Source: an uncultured Gammaproteobacteria bacterium
GTDB lineage: Bacteria > Patescibacteriota > Patescibacteriia > UBA9934 > GWF2-40-263
DNA: 25,939 nucleotides
Reading direction: 5' to 3'
Assembly (NCBI GenBank): GCA_964365355.1
Contig: CAYIPP010000001.1
Span: 1-25,939, forward strand
The position numbers were made by a program, and so were the translations under genes. The notes beneath the pieces were generated by a model. The model did not search any database. It was not told where the DNA came from and saw nothing but the letters and a program-made list of their open reading frames with translations. Positions 13,863 to 25,700 of the stretch are shown piece after piece (the first letter of the stretch is position 1; each line of letters starts with the position of its first letter).

Positions 13863-14293
13863 ACATGAAGTCTTGGATCAACATGGAGTTTTACTAAAAT
13901 TCTTTCTTGCACAAAAAACATCTTCTTTGCATCTATTTTGTGTTCATGATCATACCCAACAAGATGCAAGATTCCATGCACGATCAGAAAGGTGATTTCA
14001 GCACGAACAGTATGTCGCATCTCTTTGGCTTGATCCCGTGCTTGTTCATAACTCAACAAAATTTCTCCCTGATCTTGTTCCAGTAAAAACGAAAGTACAT
14101 CAGTGACTCGATCGTTTCCTCGATACTGCTTGTTCGCCTTTCGTATATCCCCTCTGGAAACAAACCCAATGGATACATCCATCGATTGTTTTCCTATCTC
14201 CTGTTCTATGGTCTTCCCTACCTGTTGCAACAGCTTGATCGGATAGAGTTGTCCTCCTCGCAAGCGTGTTTGATGTATCTGCAACTTCATCAT
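13859..14293 (-). CDS. ybeY: rRNA maturation endoribonuclease YbeY
   Basis: NKQYRGNDRVTDVLSF, GEILL and the Zn motif HGILHLVGYDH. Confidence 0.95.
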   Translation of the reverse strand: MMKLQIHQTRLRGGQLYPIKLLQQVGKTIEQEIGKQSMDVSIGFVSRGDIRKANKQYRGNDRVTDVLSFLLEQDQGEILLSYEQARDQAKEMRHTVRAEITFLIVHGILHLVGYDHEHKIDAKKMFFVQERILVKLHVDPRLHV

Positions 14294-15288
14294 ACCTCTT
14301 CAAGCAATTCAACACTGTTGAGCATCATTTGGAATGTTTGTGCATAATCCATACGACTATTGCCACCCAAACCATAGGTAAACTCAAGCACATACCCATC
14401 AAGGACAAGCAGTGCATGTTGTTTGTTTTGCGTCAGATAGAGTTCAAACCCTGTTTTCGAGGTCGTTTTAATGATCTGCTCCTGTCCATCTTGTTGTGTC
14501 ATCCAGGAACTGATCGTTGTTTGGATTTGTAATGGATCCGGAAGATCTACAACGACGAGAGTTATTGTCTCACCTGTTGTTGATTTAACGACATCTGATA
14601 CGTCAGAGAGACTCTCTGTCAGCCAGATACTTGGAAAAGATAAACGTACACGATGACGTTCAAAGAGTTGAACAATACCTGCTTCCTGTAAAGTTCCCGG
14701 AGCTGTGCCATTTGGATTGTATCGATGAAATACTTCATTCCCATCCAAAAATCCATCCGCATCACTATCTGGTAAATTCGGATTGGTTTGATAAATAAGA
14801 TTTTCTTCTACGTCAGTCAATCCATCCGAATCAGCATCCTTTCCGGATGTTACTTCTGTTTGAAACGGATTTTGAGTTTCCGGAGGTGTTGTTGATTCAG
14901 GTTCCGGTGTTACCGGCTGTCCCACAACCGGCTGTTGAACAACAGGCTGCGATGGAACAACAGGAGTTTCCGGAACGAGAGGTTGTTGCTGTGCACGACG
15001 AATCAACACATATCCACCAATCCCCAACGCCAGCAATATACAGACTCCCGCAATGATCAATGCGCGATAGGTGTGTTTTTTAGGAACCGGTTGCTTTAAA
15101 GGAACCACCGGTTTTTTCTGCACAGGAGGAGGCGGTGTTGGGACCACAGGATGTATCGATTCTTTCTTGGGCTCGACAAGTTTTGATTCTTTCCCGTGTC
15201 GATAGGATTCTGGCATCGTAAACACACGCGCGTTCAGTACAGAACTCGTTTTAGGTAGTGGTTCAACACGTGTTGTTTCCTCTTCCAT
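14290..15288 (-). CDS. Single-pass membrane protein: Pro-rich N-terminus, TM, Pro-rich linker, bacterial TSP3-like Ca-binding repeats, C-terminal PsbP/DcrB-like domain
   Basis: TM ALIIAGVCILLALGIGGYVLI, repeats DADSDGLTDVEE and DSDADGFLDGNEV, and a C-terminal LSFPSIW...FQMMLNSVEL pattern. It overlaps ybeY by ATGA. Confidence 0.8.
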   Translation of the reverse strand: MEEETTRVEPLPKTSSVLNARVFTMPESYRHGKESKLVEPKKESIHPVVPTPPPPVQKKPVVPLKQPVPKKHTYRALIIAGVCILLALGIGGYVLIRRAQQQPLVPETPVVPSQPVVQQPVVGQPVTPEPESTTPPETQNPFQTEVTSGKDADSDGLTDVEENLIYQTNPNLPDSDADGFLDGNEVFHRYNPNGTAPGTLQEAGIVQLFERHRVRLSFPSIWLTESLSDVSDVVKSTTGETITLVVVDLPDPLQIQTTISSWMTQQDGQEQIIKTTSKTGFELYLTQNKQHALLVLDGYVLEFTYGLGGNSRMDYAQTFQMMLNSVELLEEV

Positions 15289-15290
15289 AG

Positions 15291-15944
15291 TTAACTTCCG
15301 CTTGGAATTTGAAGAAGTTTCCCAGGTCCATTTGGATCATATCCCCCTTCAACTTCCATGCCATCCGCAAAGGTATCACCATCTGTATCGGGATTGAGTG
15401 GATCAGTCAGATACACATCAACCTCTTCACGATCAAATAATCCATCTGTATCGGAATCTGCACTGTTGATATCTGTCCCTAATTGCAATTCCACTTCATC
15501 GGTTAATCCATCCTGATCTGTATCGACTGTACTGTCTGGAATAGACTCAGGAACTTGTTCAGGAACGATTGTCTCTGATTGGTTAGGTGTGGTTGGCTCC
15601 GTCGTTGAATCAGGCACAAGAGGAGATGGTGGTGTGACAGGTGTGCGAGATGTCAAGATACGCCACGAAATAAAAAACGCTGCACCAACGACTACCAACA
15701 CCGCCAAAATAACAATGGCAACTTTCAACCCGCCTCCGGATGTCTGCTCAGATTGCATGGTTGCCACACGTTGTTGCATTTCTTCAGGAGAGAGTGATGG
15801 CCTCTGTAATGGTTGTTCTGAGACAACCGGTTCGGACACGGACGAAGGAGTTGATACCTCGGTTGCTGTTGGTGGTTGAACGTGGGGAGCTTCTTTGTCG
15901 GTTTGTGCGAACATATCCTCTGGTTGTTTGAGATTGTCGAACAT
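15291..15944 (-). CDS. Single-pass membrane protein with three bacterial TSP3-like repeats
   Basis: TM VAIVILAVLVVVGAAFFISW, repeats DTDQDGLTDEVE, DSDTDGLFDREE and DTDGDTFADGMEV, ending in GYDPNGPGKL. Confidence 0.82.
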   Translation of the reverse strand: MFDNLKQPEDMFAQTDKEAPHVQPPTATEVSTPSSVSEPVVSEQPLQRPSLSPEEMQQRVATMQSEQTSGGGLKVAIVILAVLVVVGAAFFISWRILTSRTPVTPPSPLVPDSTTEPTTPNQSETIVPEQVPESIPDSTVDTDQDGLTDEVELQLGTDINSADSDTDGLFDREEVDVYLTDPLNPDTDGDTFADGMEVEGGYDPNGPGKLLQIPSGS

Positions 15945-15975: not shown

Positions 15976-16770
15976 TTATTCTGCCAACATTCCCGGTCCT
16001 GTTGGATTATAACCGGCTTGAACTTCTGCTCCATCAAGATATCCATCCCCATCGGTATCGGCGTTATCCGAATCGGTGTGATAGATGAATTCTTCCTCAT
16101 AGGTAAATAATTCATCAAAATCCGGATCATCAATAGACACAAAGTCTCGACACTGATCATACTGATCTTCCGAAAATTGATTGCACACTCGTGCGTCCTG
16201 TTGTTGCTGTGCAAGCTCTACTTGAAAAAGAAAGGCGCAGTAAGCAGGATCTTGATTCAACGATGCACAGTTCTCAGACGTGATTGGACGAAGACCGTTC
16301 CAACATCCGGAACGTTTTGATTCATCTTGAATGTTATCACACATGGTTGGATCCCCGGAAGCAACGGCAAGTGTATAGGCAATACCATCCGCACATAGAC
16401 GTTGATGGATCTCATCGACCAACGATGCACACAATGACGCATTGTCTGTTGAAGAAGCCACCTCCCAAACACACCCATCTTTATCTTCACCCTCCAGTTG
16501 AGCACACAGCTCAACATCTTCTTGAAGAACCGCCTGTTGTTCTACTTGTATTTTTTTACACAACTGAGGATTGGTTGCCTGTTGACAAAGCGCCTCAACA
16601 GTTGCCACACGCCGAGCAACGATCGTAGACAAATCAAGAGTCGTCTGTTTGCTCATCAGCTTGAACACGACAAAAAAAATCACACCAGCAACGACAAGAC
16701 CACCGCCAATAATCGCAAGCGGTTTCCATGAAATCTGTTTTGCCTCTATTGGATAGTCGTTATAATTCAT
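15976..16770 (-). CDS. Single-pass membrane protein with helical Cys-pair repeats and C-terminal TSP3-like repeats
   Basis: TM LAIIGGGLVVAGVIFFVVF, six Cys pairs of the type A....D...C-x9-11-C, then DPDFDELFTYEE, DTDGDGYLDGAEV and GYNPTGPGML. Confidence 0.8.
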   Translation of the reverse strand: MNYNDYPIEAKQISWKPLAIIGGGLVVAGVIFFVVFKLMSKQTTLDLSTIVARRVATVEALCQQATNPQLCKKIQVEQQAVLQEDVELCAQLEGEDKDGCVWEVASSTDNASLCASLVDEIHQRLCADGIAYTLAVASGDPTMCDNIQDESKRSGCWNGLRPITSENCASLNQDPAYCAFLFQVELAQQQQDARVCNQFSEDQYDQCRDFVSIDDPDFDELFTYEEEFIYHTDSDNADTDGDGYLDGAEVQAGYNPTGPGMLAE

Positions 16771-16782
16771 AGAACACCTTGT

Positions 16783-19700
16783 TTAGGGCATCGGACAGTA
16801 GGTAAATCGGAAATTATCAAACTTGAGTGCCCCACTTCCATAGAACGATGTCTGAAGAGGCAGGGAAAATGGCTTAGATTGACACGCAAAAGTTGAGGGA
16901 AGTGTGAGCTCCACACTATTTCCCACAGGTGTCACCGTTTTTACTGATTTGGTTGTGGTATCTTTTGTAGCACTGACGGTTGTTGTTGAACTTAAAATTG
17001 ATTTGACAATCTCCTCGTACATCACTTCGATTCCTGCTTTTGTACTTGCGTTGTACGCATACACTCCGGTCTGTGCCGGATCTGTTTCATCGCAATCATT
17101 TAGCTTACTCATAATTTGACCTTTACATTTCATACTCGATAGATGTTCACCATACGCTTTGTAGATATTGTCTGTCGTAATCATTGCTGAATAAAATAAT
17201 ATTTCGGATGACTTCTGAATCACAGAATAACGTGCTTGTGCCACACACCAAGAAGGTCCCCAAGATTGGGTCTGACCTGCTTCTGTTACAAATAGACCAG
17301 ACTTCTGGGTACATTTGACTCCATCCAAAGCAGTATAGGCTTGACCATCGGTGAGAAGCACGACAATTTTAATATGATCTGCAGGAACATCTTTAAACAA
17401 ATTTATCGCGTTTTCCAGAGCGGTGCCCGTTTGTGTTCCATTCTCATAATCATTAGTCGCAAACGCAGCCACCTGAGCTTTCAACTCTTGTTTATTCATT
17501 GCGCCCAAATTGCCATAATTGTAGGCATTCTTTGCAAAGCTGACTAAACCGATGCGCAATTCTCCACCGCCTGTTGGATAAGATGTGAGCAATGTTTCAA
17601 TCGCATCTGACAATGATGCAGTGGCAATATCTATTTTTCTGTTTGGCGCAGATTTACCCCACTCCCCGGCTGGCGTCTGCCACATGGTTGTAGAAATGTC
17701 TGTGATAAACACAATATCAACAGCAGGGGTGTTCACATTCTCATTATTGACAGTGGTGGTAATTTTTGTGCCAACCAAGCAGGCGGGAAGTTGAATGAGT
17801 GCATTGTCCGGTGTTTCTTTTTCCTTATTGTTATAGCTAAACAATGAGATGCTTGGTTGTGGTTGAGCTCCTTCAAGTTCGCTTTGAACAAGCAAATCCG
17901 TTTGTTGAAACGTAAATGGACAGGCTCCACTACAGTCACTAGCGCAAATAGGAAGTGCACAAGACCATCCAACGGTACACTGAGAAGAAGAATCCTTTGT
18001 GCATGGATCCCCATTTTTATTTCCTCCATTGCAGACTCCGACTGTTTTACAAGAACTATCGGACGCACAGTCTGTATCGTTTATACAAAATTTACCTGCT
18101 TTTGAACCTGCCTTAAAACATTGTTTTCGAATATTGGTTCCATCACAAATCTCATCACCATTAATCTCCCCATCACCGCAATAGTCACCTGAGGTGGTGT
18201 GATATTGACACAACGAATCGCAGTAATTACAGGTTCCTCCATAAGGCACTGTACAAGGATTCGGAGTACCTGGGACTTTGTTATTCTCCCCATTATCACA
18301 GGCCTCTACATCGCTTTGCACATACCCATCTCCACACATATTTGCGATACACGTGTTTGTACACGCATCATTGTTTGATTGATTGCCATCATCACATACT
18401 TCCGTTCCTTCAACTTTTCCGTTTCCACAATATTGATCTCCTCCAACACAAGCAGTCCACGCTTGCCAATTACATGCGGTGTCGTTACACAACCGCGTGC
18501 GAGAAAGTGGGTACTGAAATGCAGAACATAAAACATATGGCCCACACCCAACCAAACAAGATTGTCCTGCATTGGCACCAGTAAGACAGATCATAGAACT
18601 CCCACATGCTTGATTTCCTGATCCGCTTCCACAGGTGCCACTTGAACAATCCGAATTGGTTGTACATTTCGTTACCCCATCCATACAGAGTTTTCCTGCC
18701 CATGTTTCTGTTTCTCCATCACATTGTTCTGCTCCATTGATTTGCCCATCCCCACAGCTTGGTCCATAAAATTTACAATCATAGGAACAAGAACCAAAAT
18801 TTTGATATTGACCATTAGGAACAAGACAAAAAGTTTGGGGTGATATAGAAAGAGGAGGATTGGTTGATGACAATACAGACACAGTTGAATGAGGCCAACT
18901 GTTCTGATCAGCTTGCACCTGCGTGTATTGTTCCACACTTCCACAATCACATTGTTCATTTCCAGACAAGTAGCCATCGCCACAGACAAGTGCATCATCG
19001 AGCTTGCAGATAGCACTACAATGACCGTAGGTTCCATTGAGTGACCCGTCATCACAATCTTCAGTTGTTTCAAGCACACTATTTCCACAGGCTTGCGGAA
19101 TACATTCTGCTCCAGCCAACATAGCCTCAGCGATCGTCTGCCACACACAATCGGATTTGCAAGAAACAGGCAAGGAACCTGAATCAGTTTTCGAAGGTCC
19201 ACATAAATTTTGTACAGATTCAAAATCTACTTGTCCTGGTTCACATTCCTCACCTGTTCCCTTAATTCCATCACCGCAAACTTGTGACACACCCCAGAAT
19301 GTACTCGGACCGCAAAATCCGGCATCAGTTGTAAATCCTTCTGCTAAACCCAACCAAGGATACTGTGCTGGTACATATTCCGCCACAATCGTCGCATTAT
19401 CATTTATACTTTTGTCTATTTTGGTATTCCATTTTGCCAATTTGTATTCAAGTTGAGTGTATAGTGTATAAGCCTCACCACCCACACTTTGATACCCGTA
19501 CACATGGGACTTATCCGGACACATAAATTTTCCTTCTGTTCCGTTAAAACATGTAACCGGATCATATCCGGCTCCCAAATTGCACGAATTCCAATACACA
19601 TTCAATGGATCAATTGGCATGGCTAAACCTAGTTCATTTGAAAGCTGAGCATTCCAAGATTCCCACGTACTCACACTCATGGATGGCACGTACGTTCCTT

Positions 19701-22700
19701 GCTGAAGGGTTGGAAATCCAGCAAGACATGTTTCTGTTCCGGGACATTGTGGATCCGCAACACACGAAAGATTTTTTGTGACGGAACAATGTTTATTTTT
19801 TGCACCAAATTCATTTAATTTTGTTACTTGTGTGGTGATATCTGTCAATCGATGCAAATCTCGTTGAATCTTGCCTTTATCATTATCACAATACGGATTT
19901 TCACTTTCAGCAAGCGGACATCCACCTCCTCCTGCAATCAATTCCACATTTGTCACAGAACACACATGGTTTGTGTCAGGCGTTTCAATACAATCCCCAT
20001 CCCAAGAACATCCAATAAATGCATTTTCTGTATTCTGAACATAATCACTAGTGCCTATTTTGCACAATCCGATATGACTCACAACATACGTATTTGCATT
20101 AAATCTCCAATTCTCCAGTACCTGCTGAAAAATTTCCTTTGCATCTAAACCAGCGGTTGGATTATACGAAATCACATACATGTTTGAATACAAATCTGTG
20201 TTTGTTTGGTTCGCGGCTGCGGCATAAATGGTATTTCCCGAAATCACGGCCTCGTATCCATCCAAACTCACATGCTCATATCCTCCAGAAAAACCTTGAG
20301 CCTCAAACCAGGCTTCCGGTGAAAGATAGAGACTATTTTGATATACACGCACACCAATTGCATCGGAAGTACCTTCAACTTTGAATAACAATTCTTGCAA
20401 CAATCCGGTTGTTACAACGGAGGTCACATAAACCGGATCAGAAAGTGGTGGAAGATCATCATCGGTTCCATCAATTCCGCGATCCTTACAATAAAAGAAT
20501 CCAAAGTTTGATGGTGTTGTGTTTTCAATATAGGGAAATCCGAGTGCTGAACCAAGTACCGGCCATGGTTGTTCACACACAAACGCTGTGACCTCGGTCG
20601 AACCTGATACCACATCTCCATCTGTATTGTCCGCATGTACCTCATCTAAAGTGATAGTTGCTTTTGCCACAACATATTCTGAACCATTGGTTCCAAAAGA
20701 ATCAAATTCAGCAATAGGTTGTGTAGGTGGTGGAACAATCTTGTAACTCACTACGTTTGACGTCTCTGAATCCTCAATAGAGGAATTCCATGTCCACTCC
20801 CAAGCATAGGCGTTCGTAGCGACAATAGACTCATACGTGCCTGTTCCCTCTCTGTACGTCAATGGGGTTGATTGAAAGCTATGTGTCTCACCCTTTTTTG
20901 AAAAGAAATTTGGACTGGAAGATTCATAGGGTTCTTTGGTTACTTTTCCGTTATCGACAACTTTAACTGCTTCAAGCTCACAGACCTCATCTCCAACAGT
21001 AAATGTTTGTGTAAATAACGGTGCGCAGTTTGTTCCGGATGGATTCAAACACAACCCAACCTTATGTTCACTCAATACTCCTTGATCAATTTCATCATCC
21101 CCATTGGAATCTCCGACAATTTCAATTTGATACGTAGCATTTGCTTCCAATAAATCCGGATAGTTCAGGAAAATTTCTTGACCGTTTCCGTGATTGACTG
21201 CCGAATAACTCACTTGTGCAAAACAATCGTTTGTCGCAGCAACAGCATCTTTGTTGAACAAAGACCGTAGCCAATTCCACACACGCACAAACACATTCAC
21301 CGAAGACGTATCTGTTTGTGCAAGTTGTTGGTAATGTTCCGGACACAAACTTGGATCATTCTGAACGAATTTGCCATCTTTTCCAACAAGATGCAGACGA
21401 AGATTTGCCACTGGAGCACCCTGCGGGATGGCAAATGTTCCTTCGTCCATGAGTTGCGAAAATGTCACACTCACCGCTGTGTTTCGACAGTATCCTAGCC
21501 CACCAGGACCATTACCTTGGGCAGGCAACACTGTTTCCAGTTGCGGTCGGGCAAAACAACAACTTCCGGTTCCACATCCGGTTGTGCTGGTTGATCCACA
21601 GGCCTGATCGGATTGACACGAACATTCAATGCCAAGAGAAGCCATACCTGTCACATCTGGAGTTCCCACTGCTGTTGCTGTCACAATGGAATAAGCGGTT
21701 CCTCCATCATCTCCAATTTCTTTTGCAGCATTTGTACTAATTTCCGCAGCTGCGTATCCACCAATCTGTTGCGGATTGGATGACGAAATTGTTGCTTCAC
21801 ATTCTTCACCAATACTCGGCGTCCCAGCATCACCACAAAAAGAAGGCGTTGGATAATTCAATGAAGACCCTTCTTTAAGACAAAGAGAACTACACCCATC
21901 ACCACTGGTGGTATTTCCATCATCACAATCTTCACCGGTTTGAAGCGTTGTATTTCCACACACAGAACCATAACTCAACGAAGAACCTTCATGTAAACAG
22001 ATAGACGAACACCCATCACCATTTGTCGCATTTCCATCATCACAATCTTCTCCAAGATCAGGAGGTCCACCGTTTCCGCATTTGCCGAAAAAAGAACCTT
22101 GTGCGACTGAACCTTCAAACAAACAATTTGATGAACAGCCATCTCCATTCTTTTTGTTTCCATCATCACAATCTTCCCCACCAGTTTGGAGATAAAAATC
22201 CACTTTTCCATCTCCACAGACAGATCCGACCGATGAGGCGCCTTCATTCAAACATTGAACACTACACCCATCTCCACTTACGAAATTTTCATCATCACAT
22301 TGTTCGTTTGATTCGACGAGGTTATTTCCACAACAATTTGTTGTCACGGTTGCCGAACACAAAGCCGTTCCTTCTTTCAAACACGACGTAGAGCATCCAT
22401 CACCACCCGTCGTGTTTGCATCATCACATTCCTCTGCGAGAGTTTTTCCGGTTCCATTCACAACACTGTCGCCACAAACTGCATCAGTCGATAACACGAA
22501 TGAACCTGTATTCAAACAGACAGATGAACAATAGGTTGGCAATGTTTGAGCAAGAGTAATGGCACCACTTTGAACCATGAATGCAACATCTGTAGTTGTT
22601 CCTCCATTTTTTATATTTGTCGGATCATCTTGTGCGGTCCATGCTTCCCAGTTATATCCCGTATCTTGCAAGGCTTGACCGGAGACATCACATTCATCAG

Positions 22701-25700
22701 GATCACCGTAGCCAGTTGCAATATAGTCTTGTCGAGCGCCAATCGATTGTAAAATTTGTGATTTCGGCGCCACGGAAATATGATCAATCTGACAACTGAT
22801 CTCTGAAGATTTTGTTTGAAATTTCCAGGAAAAATCATCTACATAATACAAATTCTGCTCAGAACCAAAATTACTTCCTGCGTCTTTCAATAGAACATTG
22901 GAAGGTGATTTCACTTGAAGGCCATTGAGAATCATACGGTAAGACGTACTTGCCTTCAAAGATGACGATGTTGTGACATACACTGGTTGACTGGGTAAAC
23001 ACACATTTGGTTTTTGAGAATCAACTGTGCAGTCCACTTGTGAAACAAGATTTGGTCCAACCAACTCTGTGTCAGCACACAATGAATTTTGACATTCATA
23101 CAACTGCACTGTCTGATGGTTTAGTGTGTTTGCCATGATTTCCGACTTAAACCGAAACCAAGGTTTGACATTGACGCACGCTGTGGAACAAGTGGGGAAG
23201 TAGGCTTCAAGCGCAGGATCGCTAAAATCAATAATCAAATTTCCTGTTCCGGATTTTTTCGGCGTCACACTTGTCACTTCGGCACTAATATGTGCCGGGC
23301 TTCCAGGAGGCGTTTCCGCTTTTGCTTTCACACCAGCTTTAGCAAAATCAGATCCGGATCCGGCAATTGGGTCTTGAACTTCTGCCAGCTGTGGAACAGA
23401 TGAAGACCATGCATAACTAAACGCATTGGTATTGAGTTCAATACATTGTTTTCCTTTTGCAGACAAACCAAGATTGTAGGAAATAAGAGCATCTTGAACG
23501 GTTGCCGTGTATTCCGGAGGTTTGATGAGCACACCATCAATCTCACACAAATCACCAACACCTCCTGTTGTAAACTGCCAAACAAAATCATTAAGCATTG
23601 GTGCCCCGCCAGCGCCAGCACTTGCCTTGACTCCATTTTTTCCACCAATAATCGTCGCCCGATACAAACTATTTGGAACAAAATCAACATCAGAATTCCA
23701 ATTGAAAGAATTGACAGCGATTGTCATGGTTCCGGCAACATTACTCCACTGCTGACAATTCTCTGTTTGTTGTGCTGTGCATCGTTGGACTCTCACATGA
23801 TTCGCAACGGTTGACTGATCCATATCTTTTGTGAAGGTCGCAGATACACCAGCATTAAGACAGACGGTTTTCGAATCCAACCACTGACTGGATGGAGTTG
23901 GTGATTTAATGGTTGGCGTACAAGCGATAAGGACAGTTGGATTTTCCGGAATCACCCCAGTTGAAACTCGAAAGGCAAAATGGGATACGTTTGGTGTCAA
24001 ATCAGGACACACTAATTGACAACTTCCATTGCTGCAACAAGTATAATTCGCTTGACACACCACATCTTCCAAACAACTTCCAACAATAAAATTTTGAGAA
24101 TTGGAACTTATTCCATTGGAATCTTTTAAAAAGACAGGGCCGGTTTTTGCTAAATTCGGAACAATCGCGTTGGTGATCTGTGTATCAGACCAGTCCATAT
24201 AATCGGCATCTTGCTGATCGTAAAATGTCACTTGACCCTTCGATGAGCTAAAACGCTCACCATAAACGTCTACTGTTGACCCAATCGGTCCTGACACAGG
24301 ATCGAGCATACACACAGATGGTCCTGGAACCCCGGTCACAACTTCAAAGGCAACGGCATTAGAAGTTGCTGTACCTTGTGCCACCGTCACTAGGTACGAA
24401 CCTGGATCAAGAGGTAACACCATACTATCGCTGGTTGGAAACGTAGACGGAACTTTTACCGTAATCCATGTGTCATGCCAAAAATTCTCGCCACATTGTG
24501 TCGGAAAATTCGTATCTCCGATAGCGTCATACTCTTCTACAATTTTTTTAAAATGAACTAATCCGTCAGAAGAACCGAAATTGGTTCCATAAATCGTCAC
24601 ATATTGACCAATAGGACCACTTGTCGGTGACACAACACATTGCGAACCTGGACAATCTGTATCCTTTCCGCAAGCCTTTCCTGATTTTGTACCACTGTCA
24701 CACATCTTCCAACCGGATTCGATATACGAAATAGTCGGCAATGCTTCAGGACCGGCAAGATCTTGTACATCAAAGGAGAGTTTATTGGAACCCACACGAA
24801 GCGAAACACATTGACCACCAACAGCACCACAATTTGCATCGGTTACACAATAGGCCAATGATTCACTACACCAAGATTTTGCACAGGTATTTCCAGCTCC
24901 ACAATCACTATCTTTCATACAAAACGTTCCGATTGTTTCTCCTGATGCATTCACGCATTGATAATCTCCGGAAAAAAGTTGTGTCATCACACCACCCGCA
25001 CTCATATTTGGAACCAAAGCGCTCAAGGAGGTTTCAGGTGTGATGAGAGTCAAGACAGGTGATAAAAAATTTTTAAAATATAATCCGGCAGACCCAAGGG
25101 CCGTTCCAAATCCCAACCCGGTAAATTTCACCAATGATCCCTGCACTCCTACTTGCGGATCTACGGAACACAAACCTGGACGCAAGATGGCATTCACGTC
25201 AAAATCTGGCGACAAAGGACCGAACGTATCGTCTGTACGATCCGACAAATCTTCAGAGGAAGTAACAACAAGCGGCCCATCTTTTGCATCTTGTGGAACT
25301 TGAACCACAATTTCCGTATTGGACCATTTTGTTTCTCCCACACATTGGTACGCACCCACGACCTTGCTTTCTGTTGCATCTGCACCTTCAAAGACCACCT
25401 CTCCGGGAGTATCACCAAATCCAATCCCGTGAATGGTTACCAAATTCCCTACTGCTCCATCGCCAGGTGAAACAGAATCAATCCGCACCGTACTGACACA
25501 GATGCCCTGGTCACACAACAAACCCGGAGCACAATCACTCGTTGCCGTACATGGATTAGCAACACATGCACCGCAATAATCCGCACTCGTTGGATCTCCT
25601 CCACAATTCAAACCGGTCTCACCAAACGTAGCATCCTGTGTGGCATTAAAACAATGAGCAGGGCGAATAACAACATAGATTTTGCTGGCAGTAGCGCTAT

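Follow-up and report, generated by a model that had tools for sequence, protein, structure and literature searches.

Does a giant surface protein carry the head of a type IV pilin in the middle of its chain, and if so, what is such a head doing there? The question is raised by a DNA stretch of 25,939 nucleotides from an uncultured, ultra-small bacterium of the Uhrbacteria type (Patescibacteriota; contig CAYIPP010000001.1), further referred to as the window. The window is an entire contig of its assembly, C1, and contains the gene in question:

16783..25938, minus strand: giant surface-protein open reading frame (ORF), 3051 amino acids (aa) visible, 5' end open.

The peptide KIQRDLHRL...TQLEY, in which a pilin/GspG-like head had been noticed, corresponds to residues 2023–2165 of this ORF (window positions 19444–19872, minus strand). 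The plus-strand reading of the noted coordinates was ruled out, as its translation yields stops only. The original prediction placed the segment about 2000 residues into the visible chain, and the pilin-like module was found to start there, at about residue 2019. Most probably, residues ~2019–2185 are an exapted type IV pilin/GspG-type head that serves as a non-polymerizing structural or binding module of the giant. The parts of this pilin-like lobe are as follows:

19384..19884, minus strand: pilin-like lobe, residues 2019–2185, a pilin/GspG-type head without alpha1-N, ~165 residues.
19798..19881, minus strand: helix equivalent to alpha1-C, residues 2020–2047 (DSSP helix 16–43 of the model).
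19726..19788, minus strand: inserted four-Cys knob between the helix and [YF]P-x-L, with C2051, C2059, C2065 and C2071.
19600..19716, minus strand: equivalent of the alpha-beta loop, residues 2075–2113, with FP-x-L, G-T-[YF], S-x-W-x-S-W, L-G..L-G and [LM]-P-x-D-P-x-N.
19519..19584, minus strand: three-Cys loop (C2119, C2130, C2140), conserved in both the A1 and A3 subfamilies described below.
19444..19503, minus strand: beta-hairpin V-Y-x-Y ... Y-x-L-x-x-x-L-E-Y, residues 2146–2165 (strands 144–148 and 152–156 in the model).

Direct scans with Pfam and NCBIfam gave nothing relevant on the segment itself. In the genome search the profile built for the lobe matched positions 19387–19902. All the motifs listed in the original prediction (RDLHRLTDI, GFPTL, WESW...LAMPIDPLN, HVYGYQS and YTLYTQLEY) are present in the stated order. 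The helix carries the motif K-x-K-[LI]-x-R-D-x-x-R-L-x-D-[LI], and its hydrophobic positions (20, 27, 30, 33, 37 and 40) form one stripe, as expected if it packs only against its own sheet. In the alpha-beta-loop equivalent, S-x-W-x-S-W forms a short helix (model residues 89–99), and the hairpin of residues 2146–2165 belongs to the antiparallel sheet of the head. Conservation follows these elements. In the A1 alignment, which contains 104 aligned copies of the domain, R2030, P2076, W2092, S2094, W2095, D2110 and Y2147 are invariant, Y2149 and E2164 are conserved in at least 92% of copies, and eight cysteines are near-invariant. Each cysteine of the four-Cys knob is conserved in at least 99% of these copies. 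In the 26-member A3 subfamily the C-x7-C-x5-C-x5-C module is missing as a whole and the helix continues straight into [YF]P-x-L. Therefore the module is a true insertion at the position of the alpha-beta loop, as had been claimed, near-invariant in A1 and missing in A3. The cysteines of the knob are presumably paired in disulfides.

Pilins are defined by a class III signal peptide and a hydrophobic alpha1-N, which are used for polymerization, modular pilins included (PMC8179133). We found neither of them at the segment. The residues just ahead of the helix, GGGGCPLAESENPYCDNDKG, are hydrophilic and Cys-rich, and the sequence upstream of the helix contains neither a G/A-F-T-L-x-E cleavage motif nor a hydrophobic stretch. 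Pfam N_methyl matches neither the giant protein nor the segment. In place of a hydrophobic alpha1-N of about 21 residues, which forms the filament core in pilins, the 28-residue helix starts right after a Cys knob. By contrast, the G-F-T-L-V-E motif and N_methyl matches are seen in the real pilins of the same genome, which are encoded on contigs C83 and C60. The absence of a prepilin cleavage site and of alpha1-N, part of the original prediction, is thus confirmed, and the segment is not a pilin. Lacking the class III signal and alpha1-N, it is expected neither to be cleaved by a prepilin peptidase nor to be inserted into a filament core.

The globular part of a pilin head, i.e. alpha1-C packed on an antiparallel sheet and joined to it by an alpha-beta loop, is present in the AlphaFold2 (AF2) models. 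The model of the window's own domain (m5d43c97e17b5), built with the A1 alignment, has a predicted local distance difference test score (pLDDT) of 92.7 and a predicted template modelling score (pTM) of 0.86. It consists of the 28-residue helix (16–43), short strands, the short W-x-S-W helix and the Y-x-Y / Y-x-L-x-x-x-L-E hairpin. The model of an insert-free relative, based on A3 (pLDDT 89.8), has the same layout minus the knob. The N-terminal helix is 28–31 residues long across the two models and is followed by beta strands. Both models were compared with 48,161 representative PDB chains using VIA-align. For the window's own domain, ranks 1–11 were taken exclusively by pilins and pseudopilins, with EpsG (4lw9) first (Z 4.2). 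For the A3 model, ranks 1–24 were all pilins, pseudopilins or pilin-like proteins, headed by PilA4 (Z 5.8; 93 aa, 3.3 Å) and PilA1 (Z 5.7), with EpsG at Z 5.1 and 21% identity and PulG at 20% identity. A generic helix-on-sheet arrangement would not be expected to fill all top ranks with pilins.

The closest structural neighbors were found among predicted structures. In the shape search of the ESM Atlas, the top match of both models was a 175-aa cluster from the Candidate Phyla Radiation (CPR), in which 96% of members match N_methyl and 28% match T2SSG. The A3 model aligned to this cluster with template modelling (TM) scores of 0.67/0.60 over 117 aa (2.1 Å), and the window's own domain with 0.55/0.57 over 115 aa (root-mean-square deviation 2.8 Å). 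The second match was a prepilin cluster from Saccharimonadota. Foldseek searches of AlphaFold Swiss-Prot gave no match, and those of the AlphaFold database clusters found uncharacterized homologues only.

At the sequence level, the segment was compared with A2, an alignment of 42 genuine pilins that includes the pilin of this genome. A2 was collected with a 158-aa prepilin query from a genome of the same family, and the named relatives in it are Candidatus Uhrbacteria. In hhalign, A1 aligned to A2 with K-x-RD..RL.D opposite ARDARR.SD (P 7.8e-4), and A3 aligned to A2 with a probability of 79.6% and P 1.5e-5 over 35 columns, with R-D..R..D..YP in register. The arginines and aspartates at positions i, i+1, i+4 and i+7 are invariant or near-invariant in both families and coincide in this register. 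The real alignment scored 39, compared to 12.1 ± 2.6 (maximum 26.3) for 150 column permutations of A2 and 10.8 for the reversed control. When single members of A3 were scanned with Pfam, T2SSG (PF08334, gathering cut-off 21 bits) was the family matched most often (5 of 26 members, best E 0.0063). The weak match in P0115 (13 bits, E 0.11) runs from the helix to D-P-x-N, covering profile positions 16–71 of 108. The window's segment itself gave no T2SSG match at E ≤ 10. T2SSG was also not found elsewhere in this genome and occurs in only 2 of 151 genomes of the order, hence the local pilins are not classical members of that family either.

Several observations weigh against the identification as a pilin head. 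The hhalign match is limited to the helix up to YP, and on extension past the helix (mact 0.05) the sheet region gave no meaningful alignment. Searches of PDB sequences with the A1 and A3 profiles (hmmsearch) found no pilin, the sole matches being MotY, sarcosine oxidase and bungarotoxin (E 0.8–2.5), and phmmer with the segment gave only a chance match to Mx1 (E 2.1). The VIA-align Z-scores, at most 5.8, are under the level that the tool itself calls safe, and the strongest structural matches pair two predicted models. Foldseek against the PDB, one of the comparisons that the original prediction had proposed, is not significant (E > 1) for either model; the first matches of the A3 model in this non-significant list are the gonococcal pilin, PilA1, and GspG from enterohaemorrhagic Escherichia coli (EHEC) and Vibrio.

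These observations would suit an unrelated Cys-rich adhesin module that came to resemble a pilin head by convergence, as a long helix on a small sheet is a common arrangement. The Foldseek and profile searches against the PDB are what one would expect in that case, VIA-align warns that Z-scores of 4–6 may reflect a common arrangement, and the T2SSG cut-off is never reached. Yet convergence would have to produce, for the insert-free relative, 24 best chains of 48,161 that are all pilins, pseudopilins or pilin-like, and TM scores above 0.5 on both sides over 115–117 residues to CPR prepilin clusters. It would also have to place R, D, R and D followed by YP in register, well above the permutation controls, and to make T2SSG the recurrent weak Pfam match over equivalent positions. 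We therefore consider convergence improbable. The original prediction was to be given up if no similarity to pilins and no long helix packed on a sheet were found; the models do have such a helix, and the similarity is seen in the AF2 models, the pilin-only ranking of PDB chains, the ESM Atlas matches (TM 0.55–0.67) and hhalign. The segment is best read as a remote homologue of CPR pilins, with homology seen in the helix and in the overall shape.

How widespread is this arrangement? Residues 2005–2185 were used as a phmmer query against 1.84 billion cluster representatives (50% identity clusters). At E ≤ 1e-3 the query matched 873 clusters, most of them proteins 3000–4000 aa long; stricter thresholds of 1e-10 and 1e-30 left 306 and 47 clusters. 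Among the best 150 matches, 82 proteins are at least 3000 aa long (median ~3080 aa), and 103 have the start of the domain past residue 1500 (median start 2081). The shortest matches that we inspected look like fragments, since they have no recognizable start or continue into flanking giant-protein sequence. A word-indexed search for pilin-sized relatives of A1 yielded only five proteins of 221–310 aa, which are probably pieces of larger ones; none was a stand-alone pilin.

Among genomes, the A1 profile matched 130 of 151 sampled from the class of the window (124 of 136 high-quality ones), mostly once per genome; several double matches are two pieces of one open frame. The matching frames are mostly 1800–4700 aa long and reach 5990 aa. 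Of 301 genomes sampled across the phylum, 18 were matched, 17 of them from the same class. The internal pilin head is thus not rare; it is near-universal in the class. Literature searches turned up no account of such a domain in giant proteins of the CPR.

In the homologues the pilin-like lobe is the second lobe of a larger module. The upstream parts of this module in the giant are:

20098..20361, minus strand: lobe 1, residues 1860–1947 (88 residues), unannotated, upstream of the pilin-like lobe.
19885..20097, minus strand: variable Cys-rich linker between the lobes, residues 1948–2018.
20362..20583, minus strand: optional upstream segment, residues 1786–1859 (approximate boundaries), with C-x-x-P-W-P ... 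F-F-Y-C-[KR]-D ... D-D-L-P.

Lobe 1 follows the pattern IGVRVY..LSP..W...DGYEAV..G.T.Y.A..N...YSN.Y.ISYN......I..Q.L.NW.FN. It has no Pfam match and corresponds to no database family, and a feature search of the ESM Atlas was uninformative. Using jackhmmer, lobe 1 was found directly ahead of the pilin-like lobe in 143 of 150 homologues, and the other seven are cut at the N-terminus. The distance from lobe 1 to the helix in the 143 proteins, estimated from approximate coordinates, is 45 residues at the median and 339 at most. By the same rough estimate it is shortest, about 11–12 residues or fewer, in copies without the Cys insert. The optional segment, compared across P0072, P0058, P0104 and P0096, is conserved in many homologues and missing in proteins where a Sec signal is followed by lobe 1.

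At least seven complete proteins of 804–1304 aa have the latter organization, in which the two lobes, lobe 1 first, come immediately after a Sec-type signal peptide (called by a crude pattern search, as for all homologues). They include P0093, P0095, P0106, P0121, P0122, P0136 and P0141. Four of these seven were scanned with Pfam, and their C-terminal domains vary: TSP3, DUF4215, fn3, DUF1554 and a beta-propeller. As it opens proteins of about 1000 aa that have a Sec signal, the two-lobe module is probably a mobile extracellular unit, not tied to an internal position. In one metagenomic protein, P0026 (378 aa), an N-terminus resembling a histidine kinase dimerization region replaces lobe 1 ahead of the pilin-like lobe, which could reflect either a chimeric assembly or a rare recombination. 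The giant also contains, some 290 residues before lobe 1, an amphipathic Trp-rich segment, VFVRVWNWLRSLFNKDAVAA (residues ~1546–1568, window 21235–21303, minus strand). It is conceivable that this is the scar of an old gene fusion, given that shorter homologues begin with signal peptides just ahead of the two-lobe module.

The remainder of the giant has the appearance of an adhesin. Pfam and NCBIfam assign to it four TIG stretches, a Big_5 domain, 9–11 DUF4215/myxo Cys repeats and a C-terminal VWA domain, which is likely a ligand-binding head:

17332..17718, minus strand: VWA domain, residues 2741–2869 (Pfam VWA 2.2e-9, VWA_2 6.4e-7).

The N-terminus of the giant is not assembled, because contig C1 ends there. 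Among full-length homologues the closest is P0002 (3390 aa), which matches the giant from residue 290 of P0002 onward; its NCBI name is only 'VWA domain-containing protein [Candidatus Uhrbacteria bacterium]'. The full-length homologous giants that we inspected have a signal peptide and a hydrophobic hairpin at the N-terminus, and in both of those scanned with Pfam the type IV secretion system (T4SS) pilin family T4SS_pilin (PF18895) scored above its cut-off. A search for the missing N-terminus on other contigs of the genome found only separate small T4SS-pilin genes, on contigs C141 and C63. These contigs (C141 at L003 144–1511) carry tandem small genes of ~130–155 codons that encode a signal peptide and a two-helix hairpin, and the first gene of the C141 array matches T4SS_pilin at 5.3e-7. 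It is a VirB2-like pilin array, the same kind of element as the anchor of the giant's homologues.

The gene neighborhood was compared with a 282-kb Uhrbacteria contig. There the order is YqeY, a 617-aa T4SS_pilin/Big_5 protein, the giant and three small genes, followed by YbeY, DgkA, FtsA, FtsZ, NrdR, HtrA and pyruvate kinase. Downstream of the giant, the gene order in the window is identical. The three small genes of the window follow the giant gene with small gaps and precede ybeY-dgkA-ftsA-ftsZ; each encodes a single-pass membrane protein with a bacterial TSP3 (Ca-binding) cassette:

15976..16770, minus strand: first single-pass membrane protein with a TSP3 cassette.
15291..15944, minus strand: second single-pass membrane protein with a TSP3 cassette.
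14290..15288, minus strand: third single-pass membrane protein with a TSP3 cassette.

On the Uhrbacteria contig TSP3 matches are found in the first two of the three small genes. This suggests that the giant and the TSP3 genes form a conserved block of surface-protein genes. Within the conserved block there are no type IV pilus genes.

Pilus genes are located elsewhere in the genome. Other contigs encode two PilB-like ATPases and one PilT-like ATPase, PilC, a PilM-like protein and three prepilins. A prepilin peptidase (Pfam Peptidase_A24) was not found in the assembly, which is 95.6% complete and consists of 150 contigs; this may be an assembly gap. Contig C83 (L001 6–4063) carries a type IV pilus cluster with a minor prepilin, a small membrane protein, a PilM-like protein and a major prepilin. 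Directly upstream of these pilins, the cluster starts with a 542-codon frame, cut by the contig end, that contains LVIVD repeats and a beta-propeller. This large protein may be a pilus-associated adhesin.

According to the functional idea of the original prediction, the pilin-like lobe might dock or cap the giant on a type IV filament, or mimic a subunit at its tip or base, so that the pilus would display a protein of more than 300 kDa. In favor of this idea, the fold is that of a pilin head with relatives among CPR pilins, the genome does encode pilus parts, and large non-pilin adhesins (PilC/PilY1) are known to ride pilus tips. However, the domain lacks the alpha1-N and class III signal with which known pilins polymerize (PMC8179133), and its helix shows just one hydrophobic stripe. 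It is tied to lobe 1 and is present in ordinary Sec-signal proteins as well. The homologous giants carry their own membrane anchor of the T4SS-pilin type, and no type IV pilus genes are found nearby. Docking is therefore unsupported, and we regard it as unlikely. Further down the scale, it is a long shot that the pilin head and lobe 1 act as an adaptor that couples the giant, anchored by its T4SS hairpin, to the cell's own type IV pilus (at the tip or along the shaft) via head-to-head mimicry, so that extension and retraction would position or pull the adhesin during host attachment.

An exapted head with a structural or binding function, a role read from the architecture of the proteins, would work as follows. 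Of the original pilin, the domain would have retained the alpha1-C helix, which is amphipathic, together with the alpha-beta loop and the small sheet of antiparallel strands; neither the class III signal peptide nor the hydrophobic alpha1-N is left. It is the second lobe, behind lobe 1, of a conserved and probably extracellular two-lobe module, which in this protein may be stiffened by the extra Cys knobs. The whole polypeptide is probably exported via the Sec route, and full-length homologues would be tethered by the N-terminal VirB2-like hairpin of the T4SS type. The module would then be a rigid, probably disulfide-stapled element of structural function or for binding a ligand or partner, placed between the stalk of immunoglobulin-like (Ig)/TIG domains and Cys repeats and the distal part of the adhesin with further Cys repeats and the VWA head.

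Comparison with known systems shows what the lobe shares with pilins and where it departs from them. Like the lobe, the type II secretion major pseudopilin GspG (EpsG 4lw9, PulG 5wda, EHEC GspG 3g20; T2SSG PF08334) packs alpha1-C against a small antiparallel sheet and has a short helix within its alpha-beta loop, and its motifs follow one another in the order R/D-rich helix, YP, P-x-D-P, Y-x-Y. It shows the highest structural-alignment identity to the lobe among PDB matches (19–21%), with structural Z-scores of only 4–5. Unlike GspG, the lobe has no class III signal or alpha1-N, is internal, scores below the Pfam cut-off, contains extra Cys knobs and stands behind another lobe. The pilins of CPR bacteria (N_methyl PF07963 plus a T2SSG-like head) are the best structural match and have the helix motif in register, and the heads are Cys-stabilized in both CPR/Uhrbacteria pilins and the lobe. 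In contrast to the lobe, these pilins are encoded by separate genes, are 155–190 aa long and possess the G-F-T-L-[IV]-E-L cleavage motif and a hydrophobic alpha1-N.

Pilin-fold and adhesive modules, VWA included, are also combined in one polypeptide in modular type IV pilins such as Streptococcus sanguinis PilB with a VWA domain and PilC with a lectin domain (Raynaud et al. 2021, PMC8179133). In these proteins the pilin module (IPR012902) is N-terminal, has a class III signal and polymerizes, and the extra modules are C-terminal (PMC8179133). In the giant, by contrast, the pilin-like module is internal, helix-truncated and devoid of the signal, and the N-terminal anchor of its homologues is a hairpin of the T4SS pilin type. 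The tip adhesins PilC/PilY1 of type IVa pili are very large, are not pilins and are functionally linked to a type IV filament, the kind of display envisaged in the original prediction. They attach to minor pilins via a short C-terminal stretch and not via a pilin fold. No PilY1 domain was found in the giant by the Pfam scan.

A separate case is a 573-aa membrane protein (L005:1270–2991, minus strand) encoded by another genome of the same order. It has a T2SSG-like head near its C-terminus, matched weakly in the genome search (E 7e-4), with the sequence ...DIQSALDLYHGERGEYP...IPNDIF..PYPY..GYTLLFEV and no prepilin signal. Behind the head stands the same TSP3 cassette that the three small genes of the window carry. 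A Pfam scan of the whole protein at E ≤ 0.01 found nothing. We regard it as another kind of pilin head that lacks the helix and resides in a protein other than a pilin.

Patescibacteria of ultra-small size spend their lives attached to other cells, and little in their small genomes is understood as poorly as the giant surface proteins. A near-universal and previously unannotated domain of the giants of this class appears to be the recycled head of a pilus subunit, which provides a structural handle on such proteins and outlines a new family for inclusion in domain databases. A question that arises is whether such domains still recognize pili. The finding also points to a route of protein evolution in which a filament subunit lost its polymerizing helix and was reused as an ordinary extracellular domain.

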